IMG/VR virus record: IMGVR_UViG_3300035145_003477
Span: 1 to 35,594 of that record
Strand: one strand, 5' to 3'
DNA from: a virus
Taxonomy: Duplodnaviria > Caudoviricetes
Length of the DNA: 35,594 bases
Part shown: piece after piece, positions 3,535 to 30,500 of the stretch
Layout: every line of letters begins with the position of its first letter
Position numbering within the stretch: the first letter of the stretch is position 1
The notes under the pieces: model-generated
What the model was told of the DNA's origin: nothing
Seen by the model: only the letters and a program-made list of their open reading frames with translations
The model's database searches: none
Translations under genes and position numbers: made by a program

Positions 3535-4995
3535 ATGACAAAACAAGCAGTAAACGTAGGCGTACTTCCAAATGATGGACAAGGAGATAACCTCCGAGCA
3601 GGCGCTACGAAAATTAATAACAACTTTAACGAGTTGTACACAGCATTAGGAGATGGAGACCAGTTAGTAACTATTGTTAACGGTGTTCTAAATTCATTTC
3701 CAGCAACTTCTACAGGAAGTAACAAGGTAACGTTCCTTTACAATAACTTTGCGTCATTACCAAGTCCTACAACATATGACGGAATGTTAGCAAAAGTAAC
3801 AGCCGACAACGCAGTTTATTATGCTCATAACAATGCTTGGGTAAAAATGTTAGACACTACAAGTCCTCTTGCTTCTTTAGGCAACATATCTGATTCTGCT
3901 CCATCAGATGGACAAGCACTTGTTTGGAATCAAAGTAACACACAATGGCAACCAGGTAACGTTGCATCACAAGGTGGATCAAGTACATTTGTTGCACTTT
4001 CTGATACACCTACAGACTTTTCAGGTGCTGGCGGAAAAATAGTTAGAGTCAACAGCGGAGCAACTGCTTTAGAGTACAGCACATCAGTTACAGCCGCGGA
4101 AGTAGGTGCAATTCCTATTAGTGCATTAAGTAACGTATCATCTAACTCTCCAAGTACAGGAGATGTTTTAAAATGGGATGGTAGTGCATGGGCACCAGGG
4201 GCGGATATTGCCTCAGGTGGTAGTGGTCTTGATGCAGATACACTTGATGGATTTGATAGTGCATACTTTTTAGATTATAATAACTTTTCAAACACTCCAA
4301 CACTGTTTGGCGGTGCATTTTTAAACTTATCAGACACTCCAGCAAACTTTACTGGTGCGGCAAATAGATTTGTTAAAGTTAATTCAGCAGGTAATGCCTT
4401 AGAATTTGTTGTTGATCAATCAACAGACCAAAACTTATTTGCTACAATGGCCGGTGATAGCGGTACTGTAACAGCAAGTGGACTTACAGATACATTTACT
4501 ATTGCTGGTGGAACTGATATTGTTACTTCGATTACAGGAGAAACACTTACAATTGACTTCAATGGTACACTCGGAGCAACAACATTAAACGGTTTGACTG
4601 ATGTATCAACAGCAAGTGCAGTTGTAGGTAGTGTACCTAAGTATGATGGTACAAGTTTTGTAATGAATAGTGGAGCAAGTATTACATGGACACTTGGAGC
4701 CAATGGGTCAAGTGATTATACATTTACTGGTCCAGGATTTCCAACAACACAAAATGATCCAGTGTTATACTTAATGCGTGGATTGACATATTATTTTATT
4801 AACAACAGTGGCGGCGGACATCCATTCCAAATTAGAGTTTCAAATGGTGGTTCAGCATACAATACAGGAACAACAAACAACGGTGGTTCTACCGGAATTA
4901 TTACATTTACAGTTCCTATGAATGCTCCAAGTACATTATATTATCAATGTACTGCACACAGTAACATGGGAAATACAATTAATATTGTAAGTTAA
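3535..4995 (+). CDS. Baseplate-anchored fibre protein: T4 gp9/gp10-like N-terminus, fibre repeats, C-terminal cupredoxin-like domain
   Basis: N-terminus KQAVNVGVLPNDGQGDNLRAGATKINNNFNELY matches the gp9/gp10 N-terminal motif. Repeats LxxLxN(I/V)S...GxxLxW and FxxLSDTPxxFxG. C-terminal HPF...VPMNAPSTLYYQCTAHSNMG. Confidence 0.8.
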   Translation: MTKQAVNVGVLPNDGQGDNLRAGATKINNNFNELYTALGDGDQLVTIVNGVLNSFPATSTGSNKVTFLYNNFASLPSPTTYDGMLAKVTADNAVYYAHNNAWVKMLDTTSPLASLGNISDSAPSDGQALVWNQSNTQWQPGNVASQGGSSTFVALSDTPTDFSGAGGKIVRVNSGATALEYSTSVTAAEVGAIPISALSNVSSNSPSTGDVLKWDGSAWAPGADIASGGSGLDADTLDGFDSAYFLDYNNFSNTPTLFGGAFLNLSDTPANFTGAANRFVKVNSAGNALEFVVDQSTDQNLFATMAGDSGTVTASGLTDTFTIAGGTDIVTSITGETLTIDFNGTLGATTLNGLTDVSTASAVVGSVPKYDGTSFVMNSGASITWTLGANGSSDYTFTGPGFPTTQNDPVLYLMRGLTYYFINNSGGGHPFQIRVSNGGSAYNTGTTNNGGSTGIITFTVPMNAPSTLYYQCTAHSNMGNTINIVS

Positions 4996-5004
4996 GGATA
5001 GAAA

Positions 5005-5373
5005 ATGGCAAGTTTTTACGAAGGTACAGAAGTCGGAACACTACTTAAGACTGTAAAAGGCAGTAGATACTTTTATGGTTTACGTAGAACTCAAGACGGC
5101 AGTTTATATCTTGTAAAATCGGATCAAATGAAAAGTACAGACGGTGTACAACTTAATACACCAGGAGATCCAACACAAAACTATCCAGATTTTCAAAGAG
5201 GAATTGAATTTTTTGAAGGTAGAGATGAAGAACACAATCTATCATATGAAAATCTTCGCTATGAACAGTTTAGATGGGACGATAGAAACTTAATATACTA
5301 CGTAGACGAAGAAGGTAACTTAATAGTGCGTATAAACCAGGATTTTGATTTTCCAGATGGGGTATCTGAATAA
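5005..5373 (+). CDS. Acidic conserved phage protein, probably structural (paralogue of 3061..3519)
   Basis: 122 aa, AGGA upstream, collinear similarity with ORF 3061. Confidence 0.7.
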   Translation: MASFYEGTEVGTLLKTVKGSRYFYGLRRTQDGSLYLVKSDQMKSTDGVQLNTPGDPTQNYPDFQRGIEFFEGRDEEHNLSYENLRYEQFRWDDRNLIYYVDEEGNLIVRINQDFDFPDGVSE

Positions 5374-5377: not shown

Positions 5378-5383
5378 TAAATA
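5378..5383 (+). promoter_or_regulatory. Putative T4-like late promoter core (TAAATA)
   Basis: Intergenic GGTTAAATACAATAG upstream of ORF 5410; resembles the T4 late consensus TATAAATA and recurs in most longer intergenic gaps. Confidence 0.65.
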
Positions 5384-5409: not shown

Positions 5410-8400
5410 ATGGCTGAATTTAAAATTGATAGAATACGATTTAGATGGACTGGCAACTGGCAGGCCGCTAAACAATACATAAAAGACGACATCGTTGCAT
5501 ACGGTGGTAAGACTTTTGTGTGTTTAAATGGACACACAGCAGATCCTGATTTTTATATTGATTATCTAAACCAAACATTACCTAAATGGACACAGATGAC
5601 CGATGGTTATCAGTGGGTTAATCAGTGGACACCTGGCACTTATTACAAAGTAAATGACATTGTACGTTATGGTGGACAAGTATATGCGGCTATTGTAGGT
5701 CATAGTGCTACAAGTTACACACCTCCGTCGACTACTACAACAATAAATGTCACAGTTGACATGGATACTGGGTCAATTACTGACACAGGTAGAGCAAATA
5801 CTACAACAGGTGCACTTTATCTAAATGGTGTTGAAAGAAATATTTTAACAATAGACAAAGGCACAACTTATATATTTGACCAAACAGACGCAACTAATGT
5901 AAACTTTGGTGGACAACAGCATCCGATTGCATTCAGTGTGTATGAAGATGGCGACAAGCATGAAACTCCACTTGTAGATTATTACACAGATGGTTTAACA
6001 TATCTAATTGACGGCATTGAAGTTACAGAAGCAACTTATCTAAGTGGATTTGCTGGTGCAAGTTCAAGACAGGTTCGTTTTATTGTACCGAATGATGCTC
6101 CAGATAAACTTTATTATTTCAACAGAACTGTAAACAGTAAAGACAAAGGCGCATATTTAAATATTGAAACACCAGGACAGATTGGTGCTAATGATTTTGG
6201 TAACTGGAAATTAATCACAGCAGATCAAAACTGGAGATATGAATGGTTACCACAAGTAATTTATAGACTTGGTGACTGTGTAAAGTATGGCGGAAATGTT
6301 TACAAGTGTACAACTGAACACATTTCTTCAACTACTGTTGCAGGACTTGAAGCAGATGCAACTAAATGGCAAACAGTTACAAGATCAGACAATTGGAAAG
6401 ACTATTGGACACCGAGAACACGTTACGTTTACGATGATGTTGTAAGATATGGTGGAATAATTTATCGTTGTCTTACTGGTCATGTTAGTGCAAACGATGA
6501 TGCATTGGGTCTTGAAGAAGATTCAACTAAATGGGAAGATTTAATCAGTGGTATCGATTACAAACAGCATTGGGTACCAAGTAGAAACATCACAGTTACA
6601 GGCATTGGTGCAGGTGTTGTTACATCAGGCGCTCATAATTTAGCAAATGGTGATTTAGTACAGTACAATACAGATGGAACTGATGCAGACAACATAGATA
6701 ATGACACTTATTATTATGTAAGAAGAGTAAGTGATACAGAATTTAAACTTTATAGATATTATGATGACGCTTTAGCAGATAGAAATAATTTAAATGCTGA
6801 TGGCGGTACAGGTAACCAAACATTTATTAAACGTTACAAGTACAAGAAAGGTGACATAGTTAGATATGGTCCAACTATGTGGTATTGTACAACTGGACAT
6901 AACACAAATGAAGTGTTTGCAGAAAGTTTCTTTAACATTTGGCTCCCAGGATATGACTACGAATTAGAATGGACTTCTTCTGAAACTTATCAACCAGGCG
7001 ATATTGTTAAACATGGTGGTTATTCTTATACCGCATTAACAGTTAATACAAACAGTGTTCCGTCATTTAACGGAATAACACAAAATACAGGTGATTGGGA
7101 ACTATTAACAACTGGTTACAGAATGGGTGGTCAATATAATACCAACCCTGACTTGGCTGATGAAGCATCTTATTGGAATATAGCACAACAATATTACACA
7201 GGTGATGTAGTAAGATTTGGTGGTTATCTATATATTGCATTAAGAGATAGTTTAGGATCAGAACCAGATGATCAAATACAGACTATCGACGTTACAATTA
7301 CTGTTGGTAATCCAGGTAGTGGAAACAGATACTATGTGAACGGTGTGCTTGAAGGTCCTATTACACTTATAGAAGGTAACACTTACAAGTTTATCCAGAA
7401 TGATTCTTCAAACTTAACACATCAACTTTATATTAGTACAACACAGAATGGTCATCATACAGGTGGACAATACAACTATGTTGAAAATGGAGTAACTTAC
7501 TGGTTAGATGGTGTTCAAGTTGCTGACTTGGCCGCATATGGAACAGGATTTGCCGCGGCAACTGAAAGATATGTTCAGTACATAGTACCACGTGATGCAT
7601 ACAAGGCCAACTATCTTGTGTGTGCAAACCATTCAGGTATGTACGGTGCTGGTGTAATGACCACACAGTACTCTAACAACAATTGGCAAACACTTATTGA
7701 CGGTGACAGATTTAGAGGTAACTGGTCAGACACAGTGCTTGTAGACGGTGTAAGTTCAACAAACAATTATTTCCTTGGAGATATTGTTACCTATGAAGGT
7801 ACACTGTGGCGTTGTATAAAAAGACATACTGCTTCGCAGTCAGGTACAAGACCAGATTTAGATGTAGAATATACAAATGAAAACTTTTGGACAAAAGTCA
7901 TCCAAGGTGGTAACAATAACGTTCTTCAATATTATGGTGATATTAGAACACATGACGGCACAGATCATGTAAGACTTGGTATTGGAAATCCAGGTGACTC
8001 ACTAAAAGTTGATGCTAATGATAATTTAACCTGGGAAGCACAAGAACAAACAGACAAAGTTTATTTTGTATCGCCAGATGGTATTGATAGCACAGATACT
8101 GGTAGAGGTTTATCACAAACTGCACCATTTAAAACTATCAAATATGCTACACAGTACATTTTAGCAGACGAAGGTACAAGAGCGCCTGCAACTATTCTTG
8201 TTAAAACAGGAAGATATAAAGAAATTTGTCCAATCAAAGTGCCGGCTAATGTTGCTATTGTTGGAGATGAATTACGTTCTACTTTTGTAGAACCAACAGA
8301 CGAAACTAAAGACCAAGATATGTTCCAAGTACGTAACGGTTGCGGTCTTAGAAATATGACACTATCAGGATTACAAGGTGAGTTTACTGCGGCAGATGCC

Positions 8401-11400
8401 TACTTACTTAAAAGAGTAACCGGCGGAGCCTTTGTTGCACTTGATCCAGGCACAGGTCCAGACGATACCAGTGTGTGGATTACTAATAAATCAACTTATG
8501 TACAAAACGTTTCTACATTTGGTAACAAATGTGTTGGTATGAAAGTTGATGGAACACTGCACAATGGTGGTAACAAGTCTATTGTTGCTAACGACTTTAC
8601 ACAAATTATTCAAGATGGTATTGGTTATTGGTGTAATGCTGATGGTTTATCAGAACTTGTATCAGTGTTTACATATTATTGTTACATAGGTTATCTATGT
8701 ACAGATGGTGGTAAGGTTCGTGCTACTAATGGTAACAACTCATATGGTGAATATGGTTCTGTTGCTGTTGGGTTTGATCAAAACGAAACTCCAATCAGTG
8801 CTAAAGTAAACAACTATTCAAAAGAAGCAACTGTAAGTAAAGTTTACAACGATGAAAACAAATTATTTGCAGTAGGTTACAGTAATACAGGTACACATTA
8901 TACAAGTGGTACTGTTACTGTTACAGGTTCGGGTGAAAACGCGGCGGGTTCAATTACAGAAATTAGAAATGGTTCTGTAACAGAAATTAGAATTACTGAT
9001 CCAGGTGACTCATCAGCGGCAGGCGGTGGTGGTTACACCTATGCCAACAACAGAGGTCAAGGTGGATCAACAACAAGCATACAAATTGCTAACCAAGATA
9101 CAAATAATGAAACATACTATTTGAATCATTTAATTACTATTGTAGAAGGTGAAGGTCGTGGACAGTATGCTTATATAACAAGTTATGATTGGAACAACGG
9201 TGGTGCAACTGCTGTATCAGTAACAAGTGGACAAGATGCTACACTTACTGAAGGAACATACACAGGAGTAAGAGGTGCAAGTTCAAGAGTAGATGCTACT
9301 GAGCCAACATTCACAATTTCAGTTGACGCAACAGGAATTGTACAAGCGGCAATTACTGATCCAGGTACTGCAAACCAAGTAGGTGATGTAATTACAATTC
9401 AGAATGCTGAAGTTGGAGGCACTGGACAAAATATTACTCTTAATGTAGATAGTGTTACTGCTGGTGATAAAACTATGACCGTTGCAAGACCTGTAGACGG
9501 ACAACCAGGATGGCAACATCATTTACCAGGTGAAACATTATCAGGGGCAGTTGGCACAGATAAAGAATTAAGACCATTAGATGAAACAACCAGATATGAA
9601 ATTACACCAAGGTTGACATTTAGTGCTCCACCTTATACAGCAAACAGTACAAACTTACCAACAGGTAGTTCAGTTGTTGCAAGTGCTGTAAGAACTTTTG
9701 AAGAAAGTAACACAAATATTACAAGAACTGTAATTGTAGGTAATAATACTATTGTGTATTCCGACAGTGGAACATCATTTACAGAAGCAAGTTCTTATCA
9801 AGATTTAAATTATGTTGGCGTAGCGGCAATCAACAGTGGTTGGATGGCTATAGATGGCAATGGTAGATGTAAGTTTAGTACTAATGGCCTATCATGGGCA
9901 GATGCAGGAGCAAACTTATTAAGTTATGGTTTGACTTTCAATAACATAGGTGGTGGAAACAATGTGTTAATTGCAACAGCAGATTCAACATCAAACATTT
10001 ACAGATCAACAGACGGTGGACAAAACTGGTCACAGGTTAATGCAAGTGTAAGTAATGCAAAATTTGTTGCATATGGTAACGGTAAATGGGTATTAGCAAA
10101 CGAAGCCGGTGACACATATGAAAGTATTGACGATGGTGTTAATTGGGCGGCAGGTCCAGACATTGGCGGTGTTCAATATGACATCACAGATTTAAAATTT
10201 GGTGGCGGAAAATTTATAGCAACTTGTTTTGATTCACCAAACGATTTATCAACTGTTAATAATGCTTTCCATTACAGTTTTACAGACGCGGCAACCACAG
10301 CAGGAAACACTGTATGGTTAAAAGGTGAAGATACAAATGTTGCTGATAACATTTATGTAAACTATCAACAGGGTACATGGTTAGGTGTAACAGCATCAGG
10401 TAGTATTATTCAATCAGACGATGGTGTATATTGGGAAAACAAAGGAACTGTAAGTGGATCATACAACGGTATGGCTTGTGGTGTAACACAAGATGGTCCT
10501 GCGTTTTATCCTTTACAAACTGGACAACAAGCATCTATGGATGTTATTACAACAGGTGCAACAACAAGAGCGACTGCAAGAGTAGATGGTGGTAAGATTA
10601 CAGAATTTATTATTCAAGAACCAGGAAGTGGTTACGGACAAAACTCACCAACTATGACAATTATTGATAACAACAATACAAAAGACATTAGTTACAATAT
10701 TAGAATGGCAAACGGTACTGTTGGACAAGTTGAATTTACAAACAGAGGTACAGGATATATTAACATTGGTGTAACAGTTGATGGTGATGGTTATGCAGAT
10801 TTATATCAAACTGGTGATAAATTAATTGTAAAAGATTTGTCAAGAGAACCTGGACCAGGTGACAACTTATACATTACAGGAATTAATGATATCTATTATG
10901 CTGTACAATCAGTAACAGACTTAACAGGTTCTGCAGGTAATTATACTGCAACACTTACAATTACTCCAACACTTGATAGAGCAGAATCTCCAGAACATGA
11001 AACTGATTTAATAATTAGACAGAAATATTCACAGGTTAGATTAACAGGTCATGACTTCCTTGAAATTGGTAAAGGTAATTTATATACATCACAGTATCCT
11101 TTACTAACACCAATTGAAGGTTATGACATAAGAGAGTTCCAAGAAACAGAAAATGCAGGTGGTGGTAGAGTTTTCTATACATCAACTGACCAAGATGGTA
11201 ACTTTAGAGTTGGTGAACTATTTAAAGTTGAACAGTCAACTGGTATTGTATCACTTAATGCTTCATACTTTGAATTAGATGGTTTAAGTGAACTACGTTT
11301 AGGTGGTGTTACACTTGGTGGCACAAATGCTGTTATTAAAGAGTTTTCTACAGATACAACATTTACTGCGAACAGTAACGAAATTGTTCCTACACAGAGG

Positions 11401-11667
11401 GCAATCGCAGGATATGTTGATAGTAGAATTAGTGGTGGTGGTACAAATGTAAACGTAAACGCCGTTATCGCTGGTGAAGTTCGTGTACAAGGTAATAATA
11501 TTACTTCAGAAGCAAATAGAAAGATCAATATTACTACACAAATGAACTTCGAAAAACCAGTAGATGGCGATATGGCGGCAATGGCCATGTTTACAGGTGC
11601 TACAAACTTCGGATTAATTGATGAAGGAGATCCTACTACTCCGCAAGAGATGGGTATGGGTAATTAA
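5410..11667 (+). CDS. Giant modular virion fibre/spike protein (2085 aa): 8 CBM5/12-like Trp repeats, inserted cupredoxin-like domains, beta-helix-like core, Asp-box propeller
   Basis: Repeats WxxxxxYxxxDxVxYGGxxYxCxxxH. YFVSPDG...PFKTIKYA...GDELRST pectin-lyase-like entry. Asp-boxes (YRSTDGGQNW, SIDDGVNW, QSDDGVYW). C-terminal SQVRLTGHDFL and RVFYTSTDQDGNFRVG shared with ORF 11710. Confidence 0.8.
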   Translation: MAEFKIDRIRFRWTGNWQAAKQYIKDDIVAYGGKTFVCLNGHTADPDFYIDYLNQTLPKWTQMTDGYQWVNQWTPGTYYKVNDIVRYGGQVYAAIVGHSATSYTPPSTTTTINVTVDMDTGSITDTGRANTTTGALYLNGVERNILTIDKGTTYIFDQTDATNVNFGGQQHPIAFSVYEDGDKHETPLVDYYTDGLTYLIDGIEVTEATYLSGFAGASSRQVRFIVPNDAPDKLYYFNRTVNSKDKGAYLNIETPGQIGANDFGNWKLITADQNWRYEWLPQVIYRLGDCVKYGGNVYKCTTEHISSTTVAGLEADATKWQTVTRSDNWKDYWTPRTRYVYDDVVRYGGIIYRCLTGHVSANDDALGLEEDSTKWEDLISGIDYKQHWVPSRNITVTGIGAGVVTSGAHNLANGDLVQYNTDGTDADNIDNDTYYYVRRVSDTEFKLYRYYDDALADRNNLNADGGTGNQTFIKRYKYKKGDIVRYGPTMWYCTTGHNTNEVFAESFFNIWLPGYDYELEWTSSETYQPGDIVKHGGYSYTALTVNTNSVPSFNGITQNTGDWELLTTGYRMGGQYNTNPDLADEASYWNIAQQYYTGDVVRFGGYLYIALRDSLGSEPDDQIQTIDVTITVGNPGSGNRYYVNGVLEGPITLIEGNTYKFIQNDSSNLTHQLYISTTQNGHHTGGQYNYVENGVTYWLDGVQVADLAAYGTGFAAATERYVQYIVPRDAYKANYLVCANHSGMYGAGVMTTQYSNNNWQTLIDGDRFRGNWSDTVLVDGVSSTNNYFLGDIVTYEGTLWRCIKRHTASQSGTRPDLDVEYTNENFWTKVIQGGNNNVLQYYGDIRTHDGTDHVRLGIGNPGDSLKVDANDNLTWEAQEQTDKVYFVSPDGIDSTDTGRGLSQTAPFKTIKYATQYILADEGTRAPATILVKTGRYKEICPIKVPANVAIVGDELRSTFVEPTDETKDQDMFQVRNGCGLRNMTLSGLQGEFTAADAYLLKRVTGGAFVALDPGTGPDDTSVWITNKSTYVQNVSTFGNKCVGMKVDGTLHNGGNKSIVANDFTQIIQDGIGYWCNADGLSELVSVFTYYCYIGYLCTDGGKVRATNGNNSYGEYGSVAVGFDQNETPISAKVNNYSKEATVSKVYNDENKLFAVGYSNTGTHYTSGTVTVTGSGENAAGSITEIRNGSVTEIRITDPGDSSAAGGGGYTYANNRGQGGSTTSIQIANQDTNNETYYLNHLITIVEGEGRGQYAYITSYDWNNGGATAVSVTSGQDATLTEGTYTGVRGASSRVDATEPTFTISVDATGIVQAAITDPGTANQVGDVITIQNAEVGGTGQNITLNVDSVTAGDKTMTVARPVDGQPGWQHHLPGETLSGAVGTDKELRPLDETTRYEITPRLTFSAPPYTANSTNLPTGSSVVASAVRTFEESNTNITRTVIVGNNTIVYSDSGTSFTEASSYQDLNYVGVAAINSGWMAIDGNGRCKFSTNGLSWADAGANLLSYGLTFNNIGGGNNVLIATADSTSNIYRSTDGGQNWSQVNASVSNAKFVAYGNGKWVLANEAGDTYESIDDGVNWAAGPDIGGVQYDITDLKFGGGKFIATCFDSPNDLSTVNNAFHYSFTDAATTAGNTVWLKGEDTNVADNIYVNYQQGTWLGVTASGSIIQSDDGVYWENKGTVSGSYNGMACGVTQDGPAFYPLQTGQQASMDVITTGATTRATARVDGGKITEFIIQEPGSGYGQNSPTMTIIDNNNTKDISYNIRMANGTVGQVEFTNRGTGYINIGVTVDGDGYADLYQTGDKLIVKDLSREPGPGDNLYITGINDIYYAVQSVTDLTGSAGNYTATLTITPTLDRAESPEHETDLIIRQKYSQVRLTGHDFLEIGKGNLYTSQYPLLTPIEGYDIREFQETENAGGGRVFYTSTDQDGNFRVGELFKVEQSTGIVSLNASYFELDGLSELRLGGVTLGGTNAVIKEFSTDTTFTANSNEIVPTQRAIAGYVDSRISGGGTNVNVNAVIAGEVRVQGNNITSEANRKINITTQMNFEKPVDGDMAAMAMFTGATNFGLIDEGDPTTPQEMGMGN
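5446..7896 (+). repeat. Eight Trp/Tyr-rich protein repeats (carbohydrate-binding CBM5/12-like), interrupted by three inserted domains
   Basis: Counted in the translation: DDIVAYGG, NDIVRYGG, GDCVKYGG, DDVVRYGG, GDIVRYGP, GDIVKHGG, GDVVRFGG, GDIVTYEG. Confidence 0.8.
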
Positions 11668-11709: not shown

Positions 11710-14700
11710 ATGGCTGAATTTAAACTCGGAAGAATTAGATTTATATGGAAAGGTGCGTGGGTCACCGCGAAACAATACTATAAAGATGATGTCGTTAGAT
11801 ACGGTGGTCGTACTTATATTGTTAACACAGGTCATATTTCATCTAATTTTGATACAGATATTTCAAAATTTGATTTACTATCTGACGGTTCTGAGTGGAA
11901 AGGCAACTGGGCACTTTCAACAGTCTATAAACCACGTGACATTGTCAAGTACGGTGGATACTTATACATCTGTAACACAGGTCATACATCAGCATCTACA
12001 GAAGGTGACGGTCTTGAGTTAGATCAAACCAAATGGGATCTTTTTGCAGAAGGCTTTGATTGGAAAGGTGACTGGGGTGTTACTACAAGATACAAAGTAA
12101 ATGACCTTGTACGTTATGGCGGAGTTATGTATCTTTGTACAGAAGAACATACTTCAGCGGCAGACGCCGCCGATGGTTTAGAATTAGATTCTACAAAATG
12201 GGATTTATTCGCTAATGGAATGACATGGCGAAATGTTTGGACTGCAACTACAAGATACAAAAAAGGTGATGTTGTTAGATATGGTGGACAAGTTTATATT
12301 GCTAACACTGGTCATACAGCGGCGGCTACAGACGCACTTGGTTTAGAAGCAAACCAGGCATCATGGGATTACTTACACAAAGGTATTGAATACTTAGGTG
12401 AGTGGACAACAGCAACAAGATACAAAATTAATGACGTTGTTAAGTACGGTGGTGATATTTGGATTTGTACAACTTTTCATACTTCAACAACCACACTTGC
12501 AGTAGACGAAGCAAACTGGTCAATCTTTGTACCAGGTTTAGAATTTGAAGATAGTTGGCAAAACAATGTAAACTATCAGCCAGGTGATGTTGTAACATAC
12601 GGTGGTTATTCTTATATCTCGATTACAAACAACACTGCTCAAGTTCCTTTCAATAATCCAACACAATGGGATTTATTTACAACAGGTTTTAGTTTCAAAG
12701 GCGACTACAATAACGTAACAAATTATAAAATTGGTGACGTTGTACGCTTAGGTGGTTGGACATACATTGCACTTGCAGATGGTGTTGGTAATAGACCGCC
12801 AGATGCAGTTTACTGGGATAAACTTAATGAAGGTTTATACTGGAAAGGTGCTTGGCAAAATGCAGTTTACTATGACAAAGGTGATGTTGTTAGAGGGATT
12901 AATAATGTCAACTCATATGTTTGTGTCGCGGCACACACTTCAGAACAAGTAGGTTCAGGACAAAACAGACCAGACCAAGATACACCAGGTAACTTTTGGA
13001 ACTTATTAAGTGGCGGTGCTGAAGTTGGTAACTTAACTACACGTGGTGACCTTGTTTACTACGGTGGTTCAGGTCCAACAAGATTACCAGTAGGTGCTCC
13101 AGGACAAGTTTTAAAAGTTAATGAAGCAGGTACAGATCCAGAATGGGCATACTTTGGTCAACTTGATGCAGTGTATTACACAGCAATCGAAGGAGTTGAT
13201 TCAGCAGTACCGGCGGCAGGTGTTACACTTGACAAACCATTTAAAACAGTAAACTTTGGTTTACAACAAATTGAAAATGGTGCAAGAAACCCTTACGCAA
13301 AAGAATTGTTATTTAGAAACAAAGGCTTCATTCAAGACGAAGCATTAAGTTGGGTAGATACACAGGTTGTAAATTCAACTTCACCGTTCACAGGTTCATT
13401 TACTTACACTGCGGCAAACTGGCGTAGAGATTTAGGTACATGGCTTGATGCACTTATTTGGGATTTAGGTCACGGCGGCAACAGAAAATCAAGATTAGAA
13501 ACTCTTGCAATATTTGATACAAACGCAGATCAATTTTATATTTCAAATGATGGTATCACAGCAGAATGGAAAGCAACACTTGATTATGTAAAAACATTAA
13601 TCGATGATGTAATTACACAGGATACTCCTTCAAGTAACTATCAATCACTAAGAAGTGTTTCTAATCCATCATTACAGATTACTAATTCGTCTATCAGTGA
13701 AGAAGCAGGCGCACAAACAATTATTAATAATTTGACTGCTATTGCAACAGCGGCTTTAACAGCAGGAAACACAACAGGTGTACCTGCAGAGATTGTTGCA
13801 AATGACACATTATTTGTTAAGACAGGACAGTTTAACGAAGTACTTCCAATGGTAGTTCCAGAAAGTTGTGCTGTTGTTGGTGATGAACTACGTTCTACTA
13901 AAATTTCACCAGCGGCAAGTTTAACAAGTTCAAGTGATACACAATACTCACTTGCTGGTATTACACATATGGCAAGTATCATTGATGATATTATTACAAA
14001 TACATCTGTTACTGCACAAACAGGAAATGCTATATCACAAAACACAGCAGAACCAGTTGGTTCAAGTGCGGCAGGAACTTATGCGGCATCTATTGCAACT
14101 GATATTAAAAACAAAATTGATTTTGTAATTAATGCTAACGGTTCAGATGTTGCAATGTCAGGAAGTAACACTCCTAATAAAACAGCAGGTTTCACAGACG
14201 GTGTATTAAGATTAGAAGAAAACAAAGAATTTATTGCAGAAGATGTAACAAGATACATTATTGCAACATATCCTGGTTATACTGATTTTATTTCAGGACC
14301 TAACGCGGCAACACTACAAGCGGCTTGTAAACGTGACGTAAGACGTTACATTGAAGCAATTCAACATGATATGATTTACACAGGACGTTACAAAGCATTA
14401 AGAGCCGCAGAACAATATACAAATAGTGTAGGCGGTTCAACAGCAAATGATATGTTCTATGTAAGAAATGGAACAGGCTTAAGAAACTGTACAGTAACAG
14501 GCTTAACTGGTACACTTGGATCAGTAAACACATATGGTACTAAACGCCCAAGTGCAGGTGCTTATGTATCGTTGGATCCAGGTTGGGGTACAGCACACGA
14601 AGAAGTTTGGGTTAAAAACAAATCTTGTTATGTGCAAAACGTAACAACATTTGGAACAGGATGTATTGGATTAAAAATTGACGGTGATTTACACGCAGGT

Positions 14701-17528: not shown

Positions 17529-18260
17529 ATGGCCACTTTACGAGGACTTTTATCAGACATTGAGCCAGCCAGATCCGGCGTACAGCGTCAGTTCTGGGTG
17601 TGGAACGATAGCACAGGCATCGGTAACGGTGGAAGATGTTGTTTGTGGACCGTTCCTGCTAACACTATCAACGCAACATTTGAATTATGGGGCGGTGGTG
17701 GCGGTGGTCACGGCGGATGCTGTTGTCAGTTTCCAAATAGACCGGCCGCAGGTGGATCATATGCTATAAGAACTATTCAAACAACGGCTGGATGTCAATA
17801 CACAGTCTGTGCAGGCGGTTCAACTACGTGTTGCTGTCACGGATGTTTAGGCGGAAATGGCTATCCAAGTTTTGTTACAGGTTCAAGTATTCCTACTACT
17901 TGTGCACCAGGTGGGTGCGGAGGTAAGGCTTGTTGTTTCACAAGTGCATACACTTGTCACCCAAGTTTTGTGTGGCAGTGTGGTACAGGAGATTGGGGAC
18001 TACCACAAATTACTGGTAGTGCCAAAAGAAGTCAATATTGTCATAACCAAATGTGGGCGTTCATCGGTGGACCTGCAATGTTTGGTGTGTCAAGACGAGG
18101 AAAGGACTGGTGTGCAGGTAACTTTACCAACACTGGTTCATGTTTCCAATGTTTAGCGTCCTTCCCAGGAGGAGGAGGCGGCGGCGGAGCGGCCTGCGGA
18201 GAACCTTGTTGCTGGGGCGGCTGGGGACAAGCAGGTGCGGTAAAAGTGAGTTATAGTTAA
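17529..18260 (+). CDS. Cys/Gly-rich protein 1, putative fibre-tip adhesin
   Basis: 24 Cys in 243 aa; GGRCCLWTVP...FELWGGGG...CCC...FPGGGG...VKVSY. Confidence 0.7.
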   Translation: MATLRGLLSDIEPARSGVQRQFWVWNDSTGIGNGGRCCLWTVPANTINATFELWGGGGGGHGGCCCQFPNRPAAGGSYAIRTIQTTAGCQYTVCAGGSTTCCCHGCLGGNGYPSFVTGSSIPTTCAPGGCGGKACCFTSAYTCHPSFVWQCGTGDWGLPQITGSAKRSQYCHNQMWAFIGGPAMFGVSRRGKDWCAGNFTNTGSCFQCLASFPGGGGGGGAACGEPCCWGGWGQAGAVKVSYS

Positions 18261-18278: not shown

Positions 18279-18983
18279 ATGCCTAATACAATTATACAAC
18301 AGACATTCACATATGATCTTCCAGATGACTATCTTGCCCAGACAAATGCTGATGGCAGAACCGCAACTGCAAATTACAATGGGCCGGATAAAATTTGGGT
18401 GTTCATAGATAGAGACACAGGTAAATCAGATACTTCAAGACTTGTTCTTACAGAAGAAGAAGATGGTGCTGATTTTCCAATTCCAGAAGACCAATATAAG
18501 GTAGAAATAAATTGTGCAACAGATCCAGTACTTTGTTCACTATTTGACGCAAAAGTTGAATGGGACACAGTAGTTGGACAAACAAATATTGTTGTAAATT
18601 TACCAGATGGTACTACTTACGAAAGACCAGATCCAACTGACGTTGATCACACTTACGAATTAGATGAGTGTGCATATAACTTAGATGGAACTAACACTGA
18701 CGGTAAGTGGACTGGTGGTACATGGACAATGCAGTGGAAACAGCCTTGGACTTCATGGGAACAATTAATTACAGTTAGAAACAATATGTTAGCAGGATCA
18801 GACAGTAAAATTGCTGATGATATGCCGGCGGCTACTAAACAGTTATGGTTAGATTACAGACAAGCATTACGTGATTTACCTGCAACATTTGGCCGTGGTA
18901 CTGCTAATGAAATACCTGCTTACATGGTAAACTTTCCAGTTGAGCCAGGGGCAGATATTGCAACAGTAGAGGACGACGAATAA
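18279..18983 (+). CDS. Tail fibre assembly chaperone-like protein 1
   Basis: C-terminal WEQLITVRNNMLAGSD...WLDYRQALRDLP is the phage tail assembly chaperone signature; paralogue of ORF 20480. Confidence 0.75.
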   Translation: MPNTIIQQTFTYDLPDDYLAQTNADGRTATANYNGPDKIWVFIDRDTGKSDTSRLVLTEEEDGADFPIPEDQYKVEINCATDPVLCSLFDAKVEWDTVVGQTNIVVNLPDGTTYERPDPTDVDHTYELDECAYNLDGTNTDGKWTGGTWTMQWKQPWTSWEQLITVRNNMLAGSDSKIADDMPAATKQLWLDYRQALRDLPATFGRGTANEIPAYMVNFPVEPGADIATVEDDE

Positions 18984-18984: not shown

Positions 18985-19725
18985 ATGTCAAGTTTAAGAA
19001 CCTTACTACAATACGGTACTTCTTCATCAGGTTCTGTTCCGTTGAGAAGTCTTAGAGTTTACAATACATCAATTACTTCTCCAAATAACGGCGGATCTTG
19101 TTGTGTATGGACAGTACCAGCAGGCGCTGAATGGGCCGCTTTCGAAGTTTGGGGAGGTGGTGGACCAGGTGCAGGCGTATGTTGTTGCCAACAAGGTTGG
19201 TCAGGTGGTTCTGGTTCTTATGGTAGACGTATTATTGAAGTCGATGTAGGCGATCAATTTACAATTTGTGCAGGTGGATCAACTTGTTGTCACTCAAGAT
19301 GTTATTCATGTAGAGGATTTCCAAGTTATGTATGTGGACCAAACAGTTTTTGTATGTGTTCATCAGGAGGTTCTGAAGCGGCTTCTAAATGTTTTTGGAG
19401 TCAAAACTGCTCGTACAGTGGATGTCAAATGTTCAACTGTGGTTGTGTAAATGGCGCAACACTGGCAATTTGTGGTACAACTGGTGGCGGACATGGTTCT
19501 GCTCACTGTGCCTCTGATATGCACCAGTATATGCCAAGTGCACCATTCACAGGAATGACACGTATGTCACGTTCAGGTTGTTACAAAACACATGGACAAG
19601 ATCATGGAGATCATGGTGTGTTCCCAGGAGGTGGTGGCGCATCAGGTGTAACACACAACGAAACTTGTTATTGTGGAGCGAAAGGAATGGGCGGTATGGT
19701 AACAGTTTACTATACAGCAACATAG
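18985..19725 (+). CDS. Cys/Gly-rich protein 2, putative fibre-tip adhesin
   Basis: 23 Cys in 246 aa; same motif order as ORF 17529; His-rich patch THGQDHGDHG. Confidence 0.7.
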   Translation: MSSLRTLLQYGTSSSGSVPLRSLRVYNTSITSPNNGGSCCVWTVPAGAEWAAFEVWGGGGPGAGVCCCQQGWSGGSGSYGRRIIEVDVGDQFTICAGGSTCCHSRCYSCRGFPSYVCGPNSFCMCSSGGSEAASKCFWSQNCSYSGCQMFNCGCVNGATLAICGTTGGGHGSAHCASDMHQYMPSAPFTGMTRMSRSGCYKTHGQDHGDHGVFPGGGGASGVTHNETCYCGAKGMGGMVTVYYTAT

Positions 19726-19740: not shown

Positions 19741-20463
19741 ATGTCAACATTAAGAGATTTTTTATTCGGTTACGATGACCCAAAAGCAATTCCAAGAGAA
19801 CTTGCTGTATATAACACGAATACTACAACTCCTAACAATGGAGGTAGGTGTTGTTTATGGACAGTACCTGCCGGTACTGCATATGCAGTGTTTGAAATTT
19901 GGGGCGGTGGCGCCGCTGGAGACGGTGGTTGCTGTTGTCAAATGGGATATCCATCAACTGGTGGATCCTACGGTCAAAAAGCATTAGACGTAGAACCTGG
20001 ACAACAAATTACAATTTGTGCGGCTGGTTCAACGTGTTGTAGACAAAAAGGAAACTGTCAACAAGGTTGTGACTCTTACGTATGTAGATCAGGTTCATGG
20101 TGTGCAAGAGCCTGCGGTGGTAGAGTTATGCGTACAGAATGTTTTATGTATAGAACTTGTTATTCATGTTGTAGAATGAGATACTGTGTTCATGGACACA
20201 GCGGTATGGATTTTGGTATTGGTAGTACAAATTCTACATCACAATTAAGTCAATACTGTCACGATAGAGGTAATATGATGATTGGTGATTCATATGGACG
20301 TGGCGGATTAAGAAACGGACCTAACGGCTGTTGCGGTTGGGGTGGTTCACAAGGCTTTGGTTTATTCCCAGGTGGTGGCGGAATGTCAGCACAGGCATAC
20401 GGTGAAGTTTGTTGTTGTGGATCTCCAGGTGCAGGTGGTTTAGTGTACGTGGTGTATTATTAA
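19741..20463 (+). CDS. Cys/Gly-rich protein 3, putative fibre-tip adhesin
   Basis: 24 Cys in 240 aa; NNGGRCCLWTVPAG...FEIWGGG...CCC...TCC...FPGGGG...CCCG...VYVVYY. Confidence 0.7.
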   Translation: MSTLRDFLFGYDDPKAIPRELAVYNTNTTTPNNGGRCCLWTVPAGTAYAVFEIWGGGAAGDGGCCCQMGYPSTGGSYGQKALDVEPGQQITICAAGSTCCRQKGNCQQGCDSYVCRSGSWCARACGGRVMRTECFMYRTCYSCCRMRYCVHGHSGMDFGIGSTNSTSQLSQYCHDRGNMMIGDSYGRGGLRNGPNGCCGWGGSQGFGLFPGGGGMSAQAYGEVCCCGSPGAGGLVYVVYY

Positions 20464-20479: not shown

Positions 20480-21442
20480 ATGACAAATATTAGAAAAACT
20501 TTTAACTATCCTAAACCAGATGAATATTTAGGACAGTTAGATAACGAGCAATTAGTTGGAACTCATACATATGAAGGTCCAGATACTATGTGGGTCTTTA
20601 TTGATAGAGCAACTAATAAAATTGCTCCTGCAGGATACATGGAAGAAGAGGACGGAATGGACTTTACTCCACCTGTGAATCTTAGAAAAGTTTTAGTTGA
20701 CTGTAATGAATACCCTATTATTTGTTCATTAATGGAACAAGATCATGATGATGAAGAGCATGAAACAATTACTGAAACACTACCAAATGGTGTTGAATAT
20801 GTAACTTATGCTGACCCACCACCAGATCATACATATGAAAAATTTGACATTGAATGTAATAGTAACGATGAATTTATCAAAGTACCAAGTTCAATTAGAG
20901 GTGGCACAGCACACTATCCGTGGAAACAACCACACGTGAAATGGCCGCACTTACGTAGACACAGAACTTCATTATTAGGTTGGTCAGACGATAAAGTAAA
21001 TTCAGATATGCCTGCAAGTTTACAAACTGCTTGGGCAAATTACAGACAAGCATTAAGAGATATTCCAGTAACTTATGGAGATAGTTTTGATGTTGAAATT
21101 ACTGCTGGCGGAACAGGTTATCAAGAAGGTGACACATTTACATTTACTAAAGCAACTTTAGAAGATTGGATTGTTGCTGATGAACTTGTAGCAACTGTAA
21201 AAACTATTAATACTGGTACAGGTGCTGTAACGGCTCTTACATTAAGCGGTAATCAAGCCAAGAATGATGGACAAGATATCGTAGTAGGTAGAGAAGCACA
21301 GGAGTTTGCAACACCAACTTACACATATGCGGCGGCTGATTCATCAGGCGGCGGTACAGGTGCAACATTTAGAATTCACAAATGCCAAAGGTATGCGGCT
21401 TGGAAAGTAGATCTTCCACGTTCACCTTGCGGTACTGCATAA
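20480..21442 (+). CDS. Tail fibre assembly chaperone-like protein 2 with an inserted fibre-type beta domain
   Basis: WPHLRRHRTSLLGWSD...WANYRQALRDIP; N-terminal TFxYxxPDxYL, YxGPDxxWVFIDR and DHTYE shared with ORF 18279. Confidence 0.75.
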   Translation: MTNIRKTFNYPKPDEYLGQLDNEQLVGTHTYEGPDTMWVFIDRATNKIAPAGYMEEEDGMDFTPPVNLRKVLVDCNEYPIICSLMEQDHDDEEHETITETLPNGVEYVTYADPPPDHTYEKFDIECNSNDEFIKVPSSIRGGTAHYPWKQPHVKWPHLRRHRTSLLGWSDDKVNSDMPASLQTAWANYRQALRDIPVTYGDSFDVEITAGGTGYQEGDTFTFTKATLEDWIVADELVATVKTINTGTGAVTALTLSGNQAKNDGQDIVVGREAQEFATPTYTYAAADSSGGGTGATFRIHKCQRYAAWKVDLPRSPCGTA

Positions 21443-26486: not shown

Positions 26487-26505
26487 TGCGTAATTGGAGT
26501 GTAAG

Positions 26506-27543
26506 ATGGCAGTAACATATAACCCTTTTGAAGCAGAATACGGTTTTAAAAGTCCAGGTTTCTCTGTCGATACCGAAGGCAATGTAACTTTAAAAAGTAT
26601 CACCTATACAGTAACAGAGGAAGATACTATTGAAGGTAGATTCTATATGAATCAAGTAGGCACAGGACAAAGTGCTGTGTTTACACAAGATGGAGTTTTC
26701 GATGAAGGTTCAACAGTATTAACAGAAAATCCTCCAATAACACTAACACGTGGTACAACACATACATTTAATTTAAATAATTTTACATTTTTAACTTTTA
26801 ATATTTTCCAAGTAGATCCAAATGGTAATAGTGCTATTATTATTAATGGGACTCCTGTTGTATATTACAATGAAGGCTTATCACACAAAGCAAGTGATAC
26901 AGCAACAGATTCGGTCACAGGATTGTCTGCACAAAGTAAAAATTCAGGTGTACTGACATTTGATGTTCCTGCGTTAGCACCAACAACATTATATTATGCT
27001 ACTGGTGATGGCAGTGTATATGGAACAATTACAACACAAGATCCAACTGTTACAGGTATTGGATCGTTTACAAGTTTAACAGCAATTGAAGACGTAACAT
27101 TTAATGGACAAGATGCAGAAATAAACATTGTACCGCAAGGTGCATATGGTACTGTAACAATTAATCCAGCAGGACAAGGTACATTAAGCAATATGTATGT
27201 AAATGCATTGACACTTACTGCTACGTCAACTACAACAATTAATCCAGCAGACTTTAATGTATCTGTACAACCGTCAGGAACAGGTGTTTTGACACTTTCT
27301 TCTGGTGCTGAAGGCACAATTAACAATATGTCTATAGGACAAACTACTGCAAGGGACGGATCATTCTTGGCCCTAAATGCAGAAAATGGGTTAAATAATA
27401 CTGTCATAGGTAACGAAACTCCAGAGGAGGCTACATTTACCCAGGCAACAGGAACCGCGGCACCAACAGTAGGTACACACTTGGCTAATAAGAGTTATGT
27501 AGACAGTACTGCAACTGCGTTGAGTATTGCGTTAGGAGTATAG
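26506..27543 (+). CDS. Fibre-like virion protein with a degenerate cupredoxin-like domain
   Basis: Start moved from TTG 26494 to ATG 26506 (GGAG 6 nt upstream). ITLTRGTTHTF...FDVPALAPTTLYY, ANKSYVD fibre motif, C-terminal ALSIALGV. Confidence 0.7.
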   Translation: MAVTYNPFEAEYGFKSPGFSVDTEGNVTLKSITYTVTEEDTIEGRFYMNQVGTGQSAVFTQDGVFDEGSTVLTENPPITLTRGTTHTFNLNNFTFLTFNIFQVDPNGNSAIIINGTPVVYYNEGLSHKASDTATDSVTGLSAQSKNSGVLTFDVPALAPTTLYYATGDGSVYGTITTQDPTVTGIGSFTSLTAIEDVTFNGQDAEINIVPQGAYGTVTINPAGQGTLSNMYVNALTLTATSTTTINPADFNVSVQPSGTGVLTLSSGAEGTINNMSIGQTTARDGSFLALNAENGLNNTVIGNETPEEATFTQATGTAAPTVGTHLANKSYVDSTATALSIALGV

Positions 27544-27549
27544 AGTTAG

Positions 27550-30500
27550 ATGGCTAAGAAGAAAATTAATGATTATATTTTCCATACAGGAATACCGTAC
27601 TCGGAAAATAGATATCCTAATGCGTACTGGTTAATTCAAAATAACGTTGAATTTATTAAAGACGAAGTTAGAGCATACATTAATTCAGAAATTGCAATAG
27701 CGGCTCAGTACAATGTAACTGGCGCTACTTATACACCTACAGACCATACGATGGTTTTAACTATTGGTACTCACGCACTTACAGTAGGCTCTTTTATTAA
27801 ACTTGCAACAGATAGTCTTACATTTACACCTGCACTTACAATTGACTACACTGATATTTTCCTTGTAAAAGCAATAACGGCAGACTCTATTACAATTGAT
27901 GTACCAACATCAGACGTAACAGCAAGAACGTTTAGCAGTGCAAATGCAAATGCTGTAATTAATGTGTTCTATAATTACACAAATGATAGCAATGATAAAT
28001 GTGAAAGAGATATGGGTTACAATCTTATTGGTGGTGATATTCGTAATCCAGTTCAAGATCAACCAGGTGGTTTATTATATGACTTACGTTATGGTGGTAA
28101 TGAACAAGCACGTTATCTTGCATCAACATATTGGGATGGCGCACTACCACAAATTGATGGTGATAGAAATCCAGAAAGAGCGGCTAAAGAATTTTGTGCA
28201 TGGCTGATTAAAACTTACATTTTAGATAATGTTGCATACACAACAAAACAATCACCTGCAGAAACAACACAAACAATTAATACAGAATATGTTGCAGAAA
28301 CAGAGGCTGATGCAGTAGTAGATAAAGTATTAACTGAAACAATAGGTGAAGTAATTTACTTTGGTACACCTAATATGCCTGCATTTGAAAATGCAAAAAT
28401 TAGTAGAGTACTATTTCCATCAAAAGTAAAACAAGAAAACCTACTTTTAATTACAGATACTACAAACAATGTTGTATTGTTCAACTTCAGTGATCCAACT
28501 ACTGGTGCTGAAACAAAATACACTGAAGAATCGATAGAATTTACACCAACATACGAATACTTTCAAAAGTTTTTAGAAAACACAGATAATATTACACAGG
28601 TTTTATTTGATAAGACCACTGAGAATGAAGAGTTTCTTAAAAACGCAAGAAACCTTTTAACACAAAACAAAGAATTTATTAAGGACGAAGTACGTGCCTG
28701 GATTGCAGATCAAGTTGCTAATGCAGGGTCTGGTTCAATTTGGTCAGGTTATACTTATAATGCCGCCAAGTGTGAAAGAGATACAGGCTTTAATATTGAT
28801 GCAATCATTAAAGATATGCAGTATGGCGGAAATGATAATGTAAGATCGACTGCGGCAAAATATTGGAAAGGTCCTACACCACAAATTGATGGTTCAAGAG
28901 AACAAGAAATTGCGGCTAAAAACTTTATGCGTGATTTAGTTAATAATTATATTTTAACTAAAGCAGTATATCCTACTAAACAAGGCGGCTCACCAGAAAC
29001 TACACAATACTTTTTAGGTGGCACTGCTGAATTAGGAGGCGATACAAGAGTTACAGAACTTGTTGCAATTTTAACAACTGTAATTAAAGAAGGATTAAGC
29101 AAATTACCTCCGTTAGATAAACCACAAATTTTCCATGATACAGACAAGTTACAGATTTTTGTTGATCAAGGTGATTTAAAAGTTAGACCATATGACTTTG
29201 GTACTGATGCAATTGAAAGACAAAGAGTTGCAAACAGTTTATCAATGCTTGACGCTGACTTTGAGTATGGTCTACAGCCTACTAAATGGCAGGCTATTGG
29301 TACAATGCGTGGTTATCCTTCAACTTATGAAGTGCCAGGAACAGACACATCAGTATTAAGTGTTGTAACAGATGCATCAACAGGCAGTCAAGGAGTTGGT
29401 CAATCATTAATTACTGTAACATCAGTTGGACCACATGGCTTTGAAGCAGGTAAGCCTATTACTATTAGAGGTTTAGATGGTTCTGTTGCAGGAAATGGTC
29501 GTGCTGAAGGTACATTTATTGTTAACACAGTTCCTACTACAACAACTTTTACCTACTATGCAAAAGCAAAAGTAGGAACAAGTGCAGGAACAACACTACA
29601 CACTTTCTATACAATACTTAGAGGTGCAGATTTTTATACTGGTGCAACAATCCAGGGTGATACACCGAGTTTTGAAGTAACTACACAAGGTTCAAACGGA
29701 TCGTTTAGTTTGGCACTTGGCGCATTAAGTGGAGAAAATAGATTAACAACACAGCAGTCTCCACCAAACTTAGGTGCACCATTACAAACAGCAGGTGGCG
29801 AAATTCCTTTAGGTTCGCAGGTTACTGGTACAGTTGGAACAGGTGGAATCACAACAACTCCTGTCACAACAGCAGACACACCACAAGGTTCATTTACAAT
29901 CGATGTACAAGATGCATCAGCAGTTACAGTTGGTACTGGTCTTGATAGAGGTGATGGATTCGCGGCATTTGTTACACAGGTTTCAGGTAATACTTTAACA
30001 TTAAGTGAAGCAACTACAAGAGTGCTTGTAGGTAATACTGTAACTTATACAGGAGTAACAGGAACAAATGACAACTCAATTGGTAACGGAGCATCATTTG
30101 ATGTTGTAAGAACAAACGGAGTTTACAATACTACACTAAACAGTGGCGGGCAAGATTATCAAGTTGGAGATAATATTCTTATAGACGGTGGACAAGTAGG
30201 AGGTGCTTCAGGCACTAACGATATTAGAATTTTAGTTGACACTGTCGACACTGGTGGTGAAATACTTACATTTACTGAAACTGGTGTTGGTTTTGATGGT
30301 AATGGTACATTCTTTGATAGAACTGGTACGCTTCAAGGTGGTATTGGTACTACACCGGTATTTGATGTCACATATACAAATAATGTTTACTCAGTTTCAG
30401 TAGCATCTCCAGATACATCAGGAGGATATGTTGTAGGTGATCAAATTAAGATTGATGGTTTTGAATTAGGCGGACAAAGTGTAACTAATGATGTTATTAT

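Follow-up and report, generated by a model that had tools for sequence, protein, structure and literature searches.

Bilin-type globin, copper-type cupredoxin and cysteine-rich modules in the tail genes of an uncultured T4-like jumbo phage: probably not one sensing system

The virus record IMGVR_UViG_3300035145_003477, a single record analysed here over its whole length of 35,594 nucleotides (nt; the window), holds late genes for the tail and baseplate of an uncultured aquatic T4-like jumbo phage, with co-oriented large open reading frames (ORFs) spanning positions 188 to 34158 on the + strand. Three cofactor-type signatures had been noted in these genes by a first-pass annotation, namely C-x-R-D helical domains, H...C-x2-H-x2-M domains, and proteins rich in CC and CCC, and it had been proposed that bilin-like, copper-like and Cys-cluster sites decorate the virion as one late system, for sensing light or redox state to gate adsorption, for protection from photodamage or for the use of host metal-uptake receptors. 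Two of the signatures fall into recognisable families, the bilin-type globins and the type-1 copper cupredoxins, whereas the cysteine-rich proteins show no ferredoxin-type cluster motif and are best read as adhesin tips of the Pam3 gp24 type. Across phages the three modules assort separately, and they likely do not constitute one sensing system.

Pfam and PHROGs label the products of the window as a baseplate wedge, a gp9-like connector, tail fibres with CBM5/12-like repeats, virion structural proteins, tail-fibre chaperones and a carbamoyltransferase, and from this annotation we infer the placement of the proteins in the virion. The genes with globin or cupredoxin-like domains, with lengths in amino acids (aa), are as follows.

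3535..4995, + strand: gp9-like baseplate/tail-fibre connector, 486 aa (PF07880 N-terminus above cut-off; phrog_677, E 7e-94)
5410..11667, + strand: tail-fibre protein, 2085 aa, with CBM5/12-like repeats and two cupredoxin-like domains (PF02839, phrog_9851)
11710..16830, + strand: tail-fibre protein, 1706 aa, with CBM5/12-like repeats and two predicted phycobiliprotein-type globin domains (Pfam, PHROG, profile)
26494..27543, + strand: 349-aa protein with a ligand-free cupredoxin-like domain (profile)
27550..34158, + strand: virion structural protein, 2202 aa, with two predicted phycobiliprotein-type globin domains (phrog_5838, E 1e-246)

The nearest relatives, at 55-95% identity to the window, are fragments with completeness ratings of 9-26%. 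The record G053 (357.6 kb, rated 100% complete) is syntenic both with the window and with these close-relative fragments, at a median identity of 49-59%, and it is because this record encodes a T4-type gp23 and terminase that the window is assigned to a T4-like jumbo phage. The gene psbA was not found in G053, and the host is therefore probably not a cyanobacterium. A scan of a genome collection found no host-integrated copy.

When compared with the chance expectation from 500 within-protein shuffles, all three signatures are in excess, and the statement that they lie in co-oriented + strand genes is borne out. Three C-x-R-D sites are present (nt 14326, 28000 and 28771; shuffle mean 0.30, P=0.002), together with two C-x2-H-x2-M sites (nt 4948 and 7621; mean 0.07, 0/500 shuffles), each of which has a His upstream, at nt 4819 and nt 7420 respectively. 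CC occurs 20 times against 7.4 expected and CCC five times against 0.6, nearly all in the genes at 17529, 18985 and 19741, whose products contain 23-24 Cys each (~10% cysteine). The claim that each signature is present in several copies holds for the three C-x-R-D sites, with the reservation that one of the four globin domains has Trp, and does not hold for the complete copper motif, which occurs in two of four homologous domains.

These genes had also been said to share a promoter motif, for which the candidate is TAAATA.

5378..5383, + strand: TAAATA late-promoter-like site before gene 5410 (further sites at 11677, 16808, 17161, 19730, 21477, 26029 and 26481)

The element is enriched before starts, with 8/13 + strand sites lying within 45 nt of one (binomial p 4e-10). 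It immediately precedes 5410 and 11710 and lies 11 nt ahead of 19741, and is not found directly before 3535, 17529, 18985 or 27550, that is, before four of the seven motif-bearing genes. TAAATA precedes 66/405 ORFs in G053 and so marks late genes in general; the corresponding figure in the close relative G001 is 22/89 ORFs. It reads as a general late promoter, present genome-wide and not specific to the cofactor-type genes, which leaves the proposed promoter link between the three signatures unsupported. The exact T4 late consensus, TATAAATA, is absent from the window.

Profile searches place four globin-type domains in the window, three with the motif Cys and one with Trp.

13294..13788, + strand: globin domain with W-x-R-D replacing C-x-R-D (nt 13420; profile)
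13930..14430, + strand: circularly permuted globin domain, C-x-R-D at nt 14326 (C-half 13930-14133 ahead of N-half 14209-14430)
27922..28386, + strand: globin domain, C-x-R-D at nt 28000 (profile)
28636..29115, + strand: globin domain, C-x-R-D at nt 28771, the copy used for modelling (profile and structure model)

The permuted order, with the C-half first, is kept in G001, G021 and G053. Relatives of the domain number 849 among 50%-cluster representatives, in proteins of up to 6,382 aa, and a single protein can hold as many as 34 matched stretches. In ~1,506 copies taken from the 150 top-ranking proteins, the motif residues are conserved at 96% (Cys), 96% (Arg) and 99% (Asp) in domains that are otherwise ~30% identical, and no conserved His that could be a haem proximal ligand was found, in that no column has His above 10% among its three commonest residues. 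The sequence profile places the phage Cys-x-Arg-Asp on the chromophore helix of phycocyanin alpha. A structure model of the copy at 28636-29115 (predicted local distance difference test, pLDDT, 94; predicted template modelling score, pTM, 0.90) was compared with 48,161 chains, and phycobiliproteins took ranks 1-8 (Z 11.3-13.7; root-mean-square deviation, rmsd, 2.0-3.5 A over 115-139 residues). In Foldseek, the matches listed down to rank 44 are phycobiliprotein entries.

A number of results weigh against this assignment. Haem-sensor globins come next in the fold comparison at Z 10.8-11.2, within ~1 of several phycobiliproteins, and Foldseek returned no match at E <= 0.001. Phycocyanin is top in the sequence profiles yet not significant (E 0.015 and 0.083), and PF00502 touches 3/50 members at E <= 0.1 (best 0.0016), the window's copy not being one of them; on sequence alone, homology to phycobiliproteins is not significant. 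At the motif itself, the G021 orthologue of the modelled copy has Ile replacing Cys, in addition to the Trp in one window copy. Z values of this size can be common for helical proteins, according to the search tool's own warning, and the argument therefore draws on fold, ranking and motif in combination. These point to a C-x-R-D domain that is predicted to fold like a phycobiliprotein-type globin, with the chromophore motif in the matching helix, and that likely attaches bilin at the C-x-R-D cysteine. In the accessible part of PMC10151467, CXRD is given as a bilin attachment motif, and BBAG globins are described as binding bilins without lyases and as photoinactive.

The likeness to phycobiliproteins (PF00502; phycocyanin, allophycocyanin, phycoerythrin and ApcE) and to BBAG thus lies in a predicted globin fold with C-x-R-D in the same helix, and in the genes associated with the phage domain, which are those for haem oxygenase and bilin reductase in relatives, and cpeT in cyanophages. 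Unlike the phycobiliproteins, the phage globins are internal repeats of giant tail proteins (1,706 and 2,202 aa in the window) and not free antenna subunits, and those of the window fall below detection by Pfam PF00502. Furthermore, the alignments start at antenna-subunit residue 32-50, so the N-terminal dimerisation helices are missing from the phage globins.

A supply of bilin is encoded in relatives of the window. G053 has a 5-aminolaevulinate (ALA) synthase above cut-off, a haem oxygenase (HemO), a bilin reductase and eight globin matches, and the orthologue of the reductase in another record, G051, matches PcyX 5owg at E 4e-78. Relatives of pcyX were found on 158 stretches, and hemO flanks pcyX in 71/80 loci kept. 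Globin domains occur on 4/5 and then on 11/18 pcyX-selected contigs, nearly all of them fragments (the second count covers the longest 18 further contigs of the 80 pcyX loci), and on 7/10 capsid-selected contigs. Among 47 further records, reductase and oxygenase were above cut-off in the same five, all of which are globin-positive. On the opposite side, 23 close-relative fragments (G001, G002, G006-G026) yielded no bilin gene, and neither did five capsid-selected contigs that are 28-60% complete. For G001, G021 and G026 this absence is uninformative, because the mapped fragments correspond to about 32-165 kb of G053 and stop short of its bilin locus at 329 kb. We infer that the window's own phage would synthesise bilin from a locus outside this contig, the genes being present in relatives. 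Neither CpeT nor CpeS was found in G053, and among five uncultured records CpeS was found in none and CpeT in one (G033).

In carrying all three genes and lacking psbA, G053 resembles phages with the tetrapyrrole gene set alaS-hemO-pcyX, for which the use of the bilin was left open, with host phytochrome or BBAG proteins suggested, in the accessible text of PMC11480375; the difference is that the candidate bilin acceptor here is encoded by the phage's own tail genes. Those portions of PMC13446030 and PMC2984593 that were available give phage bilin genes host-centred roles or none. At 325828-330470, G053 has a clpS-hemO-pcyX cassette with csgF and csgG curli-secretion genes nearby, and csgF-like and csgG-like ORFs are found near pcyX in 27/80 and 24/80 loci. 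Nitrilase-like homologues also occur beside hemO-pcyX (G051 49.7-50.7 kb; L457, L458 and L461). A role in bilin handling for the window's own nitrilase-like (CN hydrolase) gene, at 21488-22315, was considered and dropped, as the homologue between hemO and pcyX in G051 is 33-37% identical and the arrangement recurs in only 3/80 other loci.

All 150 INPHARED records matched by the globin domain are cyanophages. A matrix was compiled of 16 cyanophages (14 from domain match lists, 2 by accession) and two phages of heterotrophs; in the cyanophages, globin was present in 13, cupredoxin in 14, Cys-rich proteins in 3, cpeT in 11 and bilin reductase in 5, and none of the five was found in the heterotroph phages HTVC008M and phiM12. 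Globin is present in 11/11 cpeT-positive cyanophages (p 0.018, uncorrected for kinship or selection). In S-PM2, S-CAM3 and S-RSM4 the CpeT is canonical and its gene sits no more than 1.5 kb upstream of the giant gene with the globin domains, and in the other eight cpeT cyanophages cpeT is divergent and tens of kb from the globin gene. The segments that hold cpeT and a giant gene with multiple C-x-R-D motifs are 163952-177267 in S-PM2, 18150-23584 in S-CAM3 and 170023-177038 in S-RSM4. In L294 (AJ630128 168556-173383), 16 tRNAs are annotated inside the 3,779-codon p218 reading frame, apparently an artefact of the coordinates in that record.

Other features of the cyanophages count against a bilin role. 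Bilin reductase does not track globin, being present in 3/13 cyanophages with globin and 2/3 without, the latter being P-SSM2 and S-SSM7. Full C-x-R-D was seen in 31/54 fetched cyanophage copies, and all three P-SSM4 copies are without Cys, although Cys and Asp survive in 18/23 degenerate copies. The expected co-occurrence with bilin genes was thus found for globin on hemO-pcyX contigs and with cpeT, and not for the reductase in cyanophages.

The window also encodes four cupredoxin-like domains, in two of which the ligand set is complete.

4681..4992, + strand: C-terminal cupredoxin-like domain, complete type-1 ligand set (His nt 4819, Cys 4948, His 4957, Met 4966)
5782..6165, + strand: cupredoxin-like domain without Cys, second His and Met (profile)
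7333..7647, + strand: cupredoxin-like domain, complete ligand set (His nt 7420, Cys 7621)
26683..27033, + strand: ligand-free cupredoxin-like domain in the 349-aa protein (profile)

This domain is matched in 324 phage records, in most of which it is the C-terminal domain of cyanophage gp9. Its profile matches nitrite reductase (1.4e-5), plastocyanin (E 1.7e-4), amicyanin (1.7e-3) and also rusticyanin, and PF00127 is found in 7/40 motif-bearing copies at E <= 0.1. A ligand census of 91 ungapped non-redundant copies (6 gapped rows left out) showed that 47 have Cys and the second His; all 47 also have the first His, the axial residue is Met in 46 and Gln in one, and Cys was never seen without the first His. 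A copy with first His, Cys and second His is present in 14/14 cupredoxin-positive cyanophages, with Met too except in S-CAM3. Less favourable are the 44/91 copies without Cys and second His, and the fact that the profile (alignment A4) was made of 40 motif-bearing copies only. Ligands that are kept or lost together look like the pattern of a type-1 copper site under selection, and domains with all four ligands likely bind one copper, judging from their sequences. As in type-1 blue copper proteins (amicyanin, plastocyanin, rusticyanin; PF00127), the ligands are co-conserved in the order His...Cys-x2-His-x2-Met and the profile matches cover most of the domain; the short His...Cys-x2-His-x2-Met loop is of the amicyanin type. 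Unlike those proteins, the phage domain is a module of gp9-like and fibre proteins and not a soluble electron carrier, and the site is gone from roughly half of the copies. In L116:12293-12676 and G021 71398-78018, an orthologue of the window's ligand-free domain is H/C/H/Q and the next domain has lost the second His, so copper sites are both gained and lost among orthologous copies.

The third module is a cluster of three cysteine-rich genes and two chaperone-like genes.

17529..18260, + strand: Cys/Gly-rich protein 1, 24 Cys, predicted TNF-like and glycine-rich adhesin of the Pam3 gp24 type (PF21722 above cut-off; model)
18279..18983, + strand: tail-fibre assembly chaperone-like protein 1 (PF16778 above cut-off)
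18985..19725, + strand: Cys/Gly-rich protein 2, 23 Cys, paralogue (phrog_4205; alignment A2)
19741..20463, + strand: Cys/Gly-rich protein 3, 24 Cys, paralogue (phrog_4205; alignment A2)
20480..21442, + strand: tail-fibre assembly chaperone-like protein 2 (PF16778 above cut-off)

A structure model of the Cys-rich protein (pLDDT 66.5) matches the Pam3 fibre 7ypx at Z 16.3 (E 1e-6, rmsd 6.1 A over 196), the Bxb1 tail tip at 13.6 and the ALK glycine-rich domain at 8.6-8.9, with the next match at 3.5; it is a weakness of this comparison that model residues 164-208 fall below pLDDT 50 and are unreliable. Pam3 gp24 is described as a receptor-binding fibre folded by the adjacent chaperone gp25 in the part of PMC9608196 available, and in that of PMC9942802 the Pam3 fibres are held by disulfides, the reduction of which triggers contraction. 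The two PF16778 genes (18279 and 20480) stand beside the Cys-rich trio as gp25 stands beside gp24. In common with Pam3 gp24/gp25 (7YPX), the Bxb1 tail tip and the ALK/LTK glycine-rich domain, the trio has a predicted TNF-like plus glycine-rich fold of ~240 aa, with a chaperone adjacent; unlike Pam3 gp24/gp25, the window has three paralogues, two chaperones, ~10% cysteine and a very short N-terminal helical part. On the model, the trio is predicted to form host-gripping fibre tips.

The tip cysteines likely form disulfides, a reading that is favoured only by the analogy with Pam3: a 4Fe-4S ferredoxin motif was found in 0/36 Cys-rich homologues, and cysteine parity, with an even count in only 14/34 homologues, gives no signal and was dropped as a sign of disulfides. 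The cassette is found in four INPHARED records (tblastn). Its gene order across 11710-26014 of the window (fibre, three Cys-rich genes, hypotheticals, T4-GC 302, carbamoyltransferase) is the same in S-SSM7 (SSSM7_113-121), where the three Cys-rich homologues have 28-30 Cys each. Unlike the window, S-SSM7 has no globin domain, so the cassette travels without it, and on these gene orders the Cys-rich cassette is mobile between phages. In G053 one unrelated glycine-rich protein, of 489 aa and with 31 Cys, occupies the slot, and this genome also carries a Cys-free glycine-rich protein.

The explanation that we favour, and to which we assign about even odds, is that some fibre and structural proteins of the particle carry covalent bilin and that gp9 and one fibre carry copper, both passively, and that the disulfide-rich adhesin tips are a separate, exchangeable cassette. 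The phage would make phycoerythrobilin with its own ALA synthase, HemO and PcyX, the genes for which are seen in relatives, and its attachment to the globin domains would need no lyase, as in BBAG globins, given that no CpeT or CpeS is seen in this clade; cyanophages would instead rely on bilin from the host and on the CpeT that they encode. Carried on the fibres and baseplate, pigment and copper would form a putative passive shield against light or oxidants, or a surface-binding feature, and not a switch, and the adhesin tips, folded by the neighbouring chaperones, would be swapped between phages as a cassette. Genes and late promoter would be shared by the three modules because all are tail parts. 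A switch is disfavoured, since BBAGs are photoinactive and phycoerythrobilin, which does not have the photoswitching bond, cannot photoisomerise in the usual way.

It is possible, if rather unlikely, that the domains are instead cofactor-free structural spacers or binding modules, in which the motifs are inherited leftovers or folding aids. Such a reading accommodates the common loss of ligands (44/91 cupredoxin-like copies, and 23/54 cyanophage globin copies without the full motif), the substitutions in orthologous globin copies of near relatives, and the lack of a lyase in the complete G053. It is harder to reconcile with the 96/96/99% conservation of a lone Cys, an Arg and an Asp in ~30%-identical domains and with copper ligands that are all-or-none, both of which argue for selection on the ligand site, with the retention of Cys and Asp by 18/23 degenerate cyanophage globin copies, or with the links to cpeT and hemO-pcyX.

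More doubtful is the proposal that the globin alone is a light gate, in which bilin on a fibre or the baseplate licenses adsorption and the copper and cysteine modules are unrelated. According to the accessible text of PMC6628666, P-HM1 and P-HM2 do not adsorb in the dark, S-PM2 depends on light to adsorb but not on photosynthesis by the host, P-SSM2 can adsorb in darkness although light enhances its adsorption, and light-sensitive tail fibres or receptors have been proposed. P-HM1, P-HM2 and S-PM2 have the globin, and S-PM2 has no cupredoxin match, whereas the dark-adsorbing P-SSM2 is without globin but has cupredoxin and Cys-rich genes. The comparison is of three phages with one, two of them close kin, and is only a lead; moreover, P-SSM2 adsorption is still light-enhanced, and the BBAG holoproteins are photoinactive (PMC10151467, as far as its accessible part goes). 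Light-dependent adsorption traits are not known for phages of heterotrophs, in the portion of PMC6628666 at hand, and G053, without psbA, probably has a non-cyanobacterial host. The bolder version, that the particles are coloured and copper-bearing and that tail globins are the missing acceptors for phage-made or CpeT-loaded bilin, making adsorption of S-PM2 and P-HM2 light-dependent, appears equally doubtful.

We consider it very unlikely that the three kinds of site belong to a single co-regulated system of the virion, sensing light or redox state and setting off adsorption or contraction. All three modules are syntenic in the close relatives G001 and G021, and G053 has globins, one complete copper site and, in the slot of the Cys-rich trio, its own 31-Cys glycine-rich protein; the three types can therefore coexist within the jumbo clade, which counts against separate assortment; tail-gene synteny explains this equally well. 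The disulfide-held fibres of Pam3, in which reduction leads to contraction (PMC9942802, accessible part), offer a further parallel. However, the phage records matched number 150 for globin, 324 for cupredoxin and four for Cys-rich proteins, and all three modules occur together in 1/16 cyanophages (S-CAM3), with the copper site there lacking the axial Met. Globin and cupredoxin show no association among the 16 (p 1.0), Cys-rich proteins are present in 1/13 globin-positive and 2/3 globin-negative cyanophages, and S-PM2 and B3 have globins with no cupredoxin match. The site types sit in different proteins, their copy number varies freely and TAAATA is genome-wide. As to the thiol-redox genes that were expected to co-occur, no dedicated thiol oxidase was found: DsbB was found in 0/5 genomes, as was the Erv1/Alr oxidase, for which the control was also silent, making that absence uninformative. 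G053 has glutaredoxin and AhpC/AhpD-like genes, which are ordinary phage genes. The idea of a single co-regulated system is therefore set aside, the modules assorting independently and the promoter being generic.

Least probable of all is a reading in which metal or iron-sulfur clusters bound by the Cys-rich tips serve to engage the metal-uptake receptors of the host: metal ions do occur in phage tail tips (T4 gp37 and lambda gpL), and the 36 homologues, besides lacking an even-number bias, have ~26 alignment columns with Cys in at least 30% of them (eight of these in at least 94%) and CxxC in 35/36, in proteins of 10% Cys, but the ferredoxin motif is absent from all 36, CxxxCxxC and Cx4Cx2C occur in 4/36 and 9/36, the HxH fibre motif is absent except for one site, and the cysteines are scattered over a fold that does not need them, as the Cys-free glycine-rich protein of G053 shows.

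Several other features of these genomes were observed. Two paralogous small phrog_8997 proteins are encoded at 3061-3519 and 5005-5373, either side of the gp9-like gene, where G053 has one. The nitrilase-like gene lies downstream of the adhesin cassette, and is followed at 22349-26014 by a glycosyltransferase-like gene, a 308-aa protein of unknown type and a NodU-like carbamoyltransferase; S-SSM7 has T4-GC 302/303 there. The glycosyltransferase-like gene (phrog_8954) is broken into two ORFs at 22349-23309, where the window is 14 nt short relative to five related loci, and the counterpart in G001 is an intact 323-aa ORF; the split gene is a pseudogene or an assembly error. Beside the baseplate genes of G053, at ~165000-190000, is a long run of genes with 8-12 Cys each, which we presume from their motifs to resemble radical-SAM proteins.

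No description of phycobiliprotein-type or cupredoxin domains in phage tail proteins was found among the search listings of open-access full texts; the supplements of PMC10151467 and PMC11480375 could list phage tail proteins with such domains. The folds themselves are known, and it is their placement in phage tail proteins that was not found in print. What is new here is the direct test of the combined three-part claim, which fails, together with the linkage to cpeT in cultured phages. Now that the one-system claim has failed, the globin takes priority and the copper domain comes next. Cultured phages and a single small recombinant domain make it possible to test what purpose is served by phage bilin enzymes and CpeT lyases, and likewise why some cyanophages adsorb only in light (PMC6628666, in the part accessible). 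If true, blue-copper sites on the tails of hundreds of marine phages would be an unrecognised pool of copper, and bilin-gated adsorption would mean a virus with its own photoreceptor.

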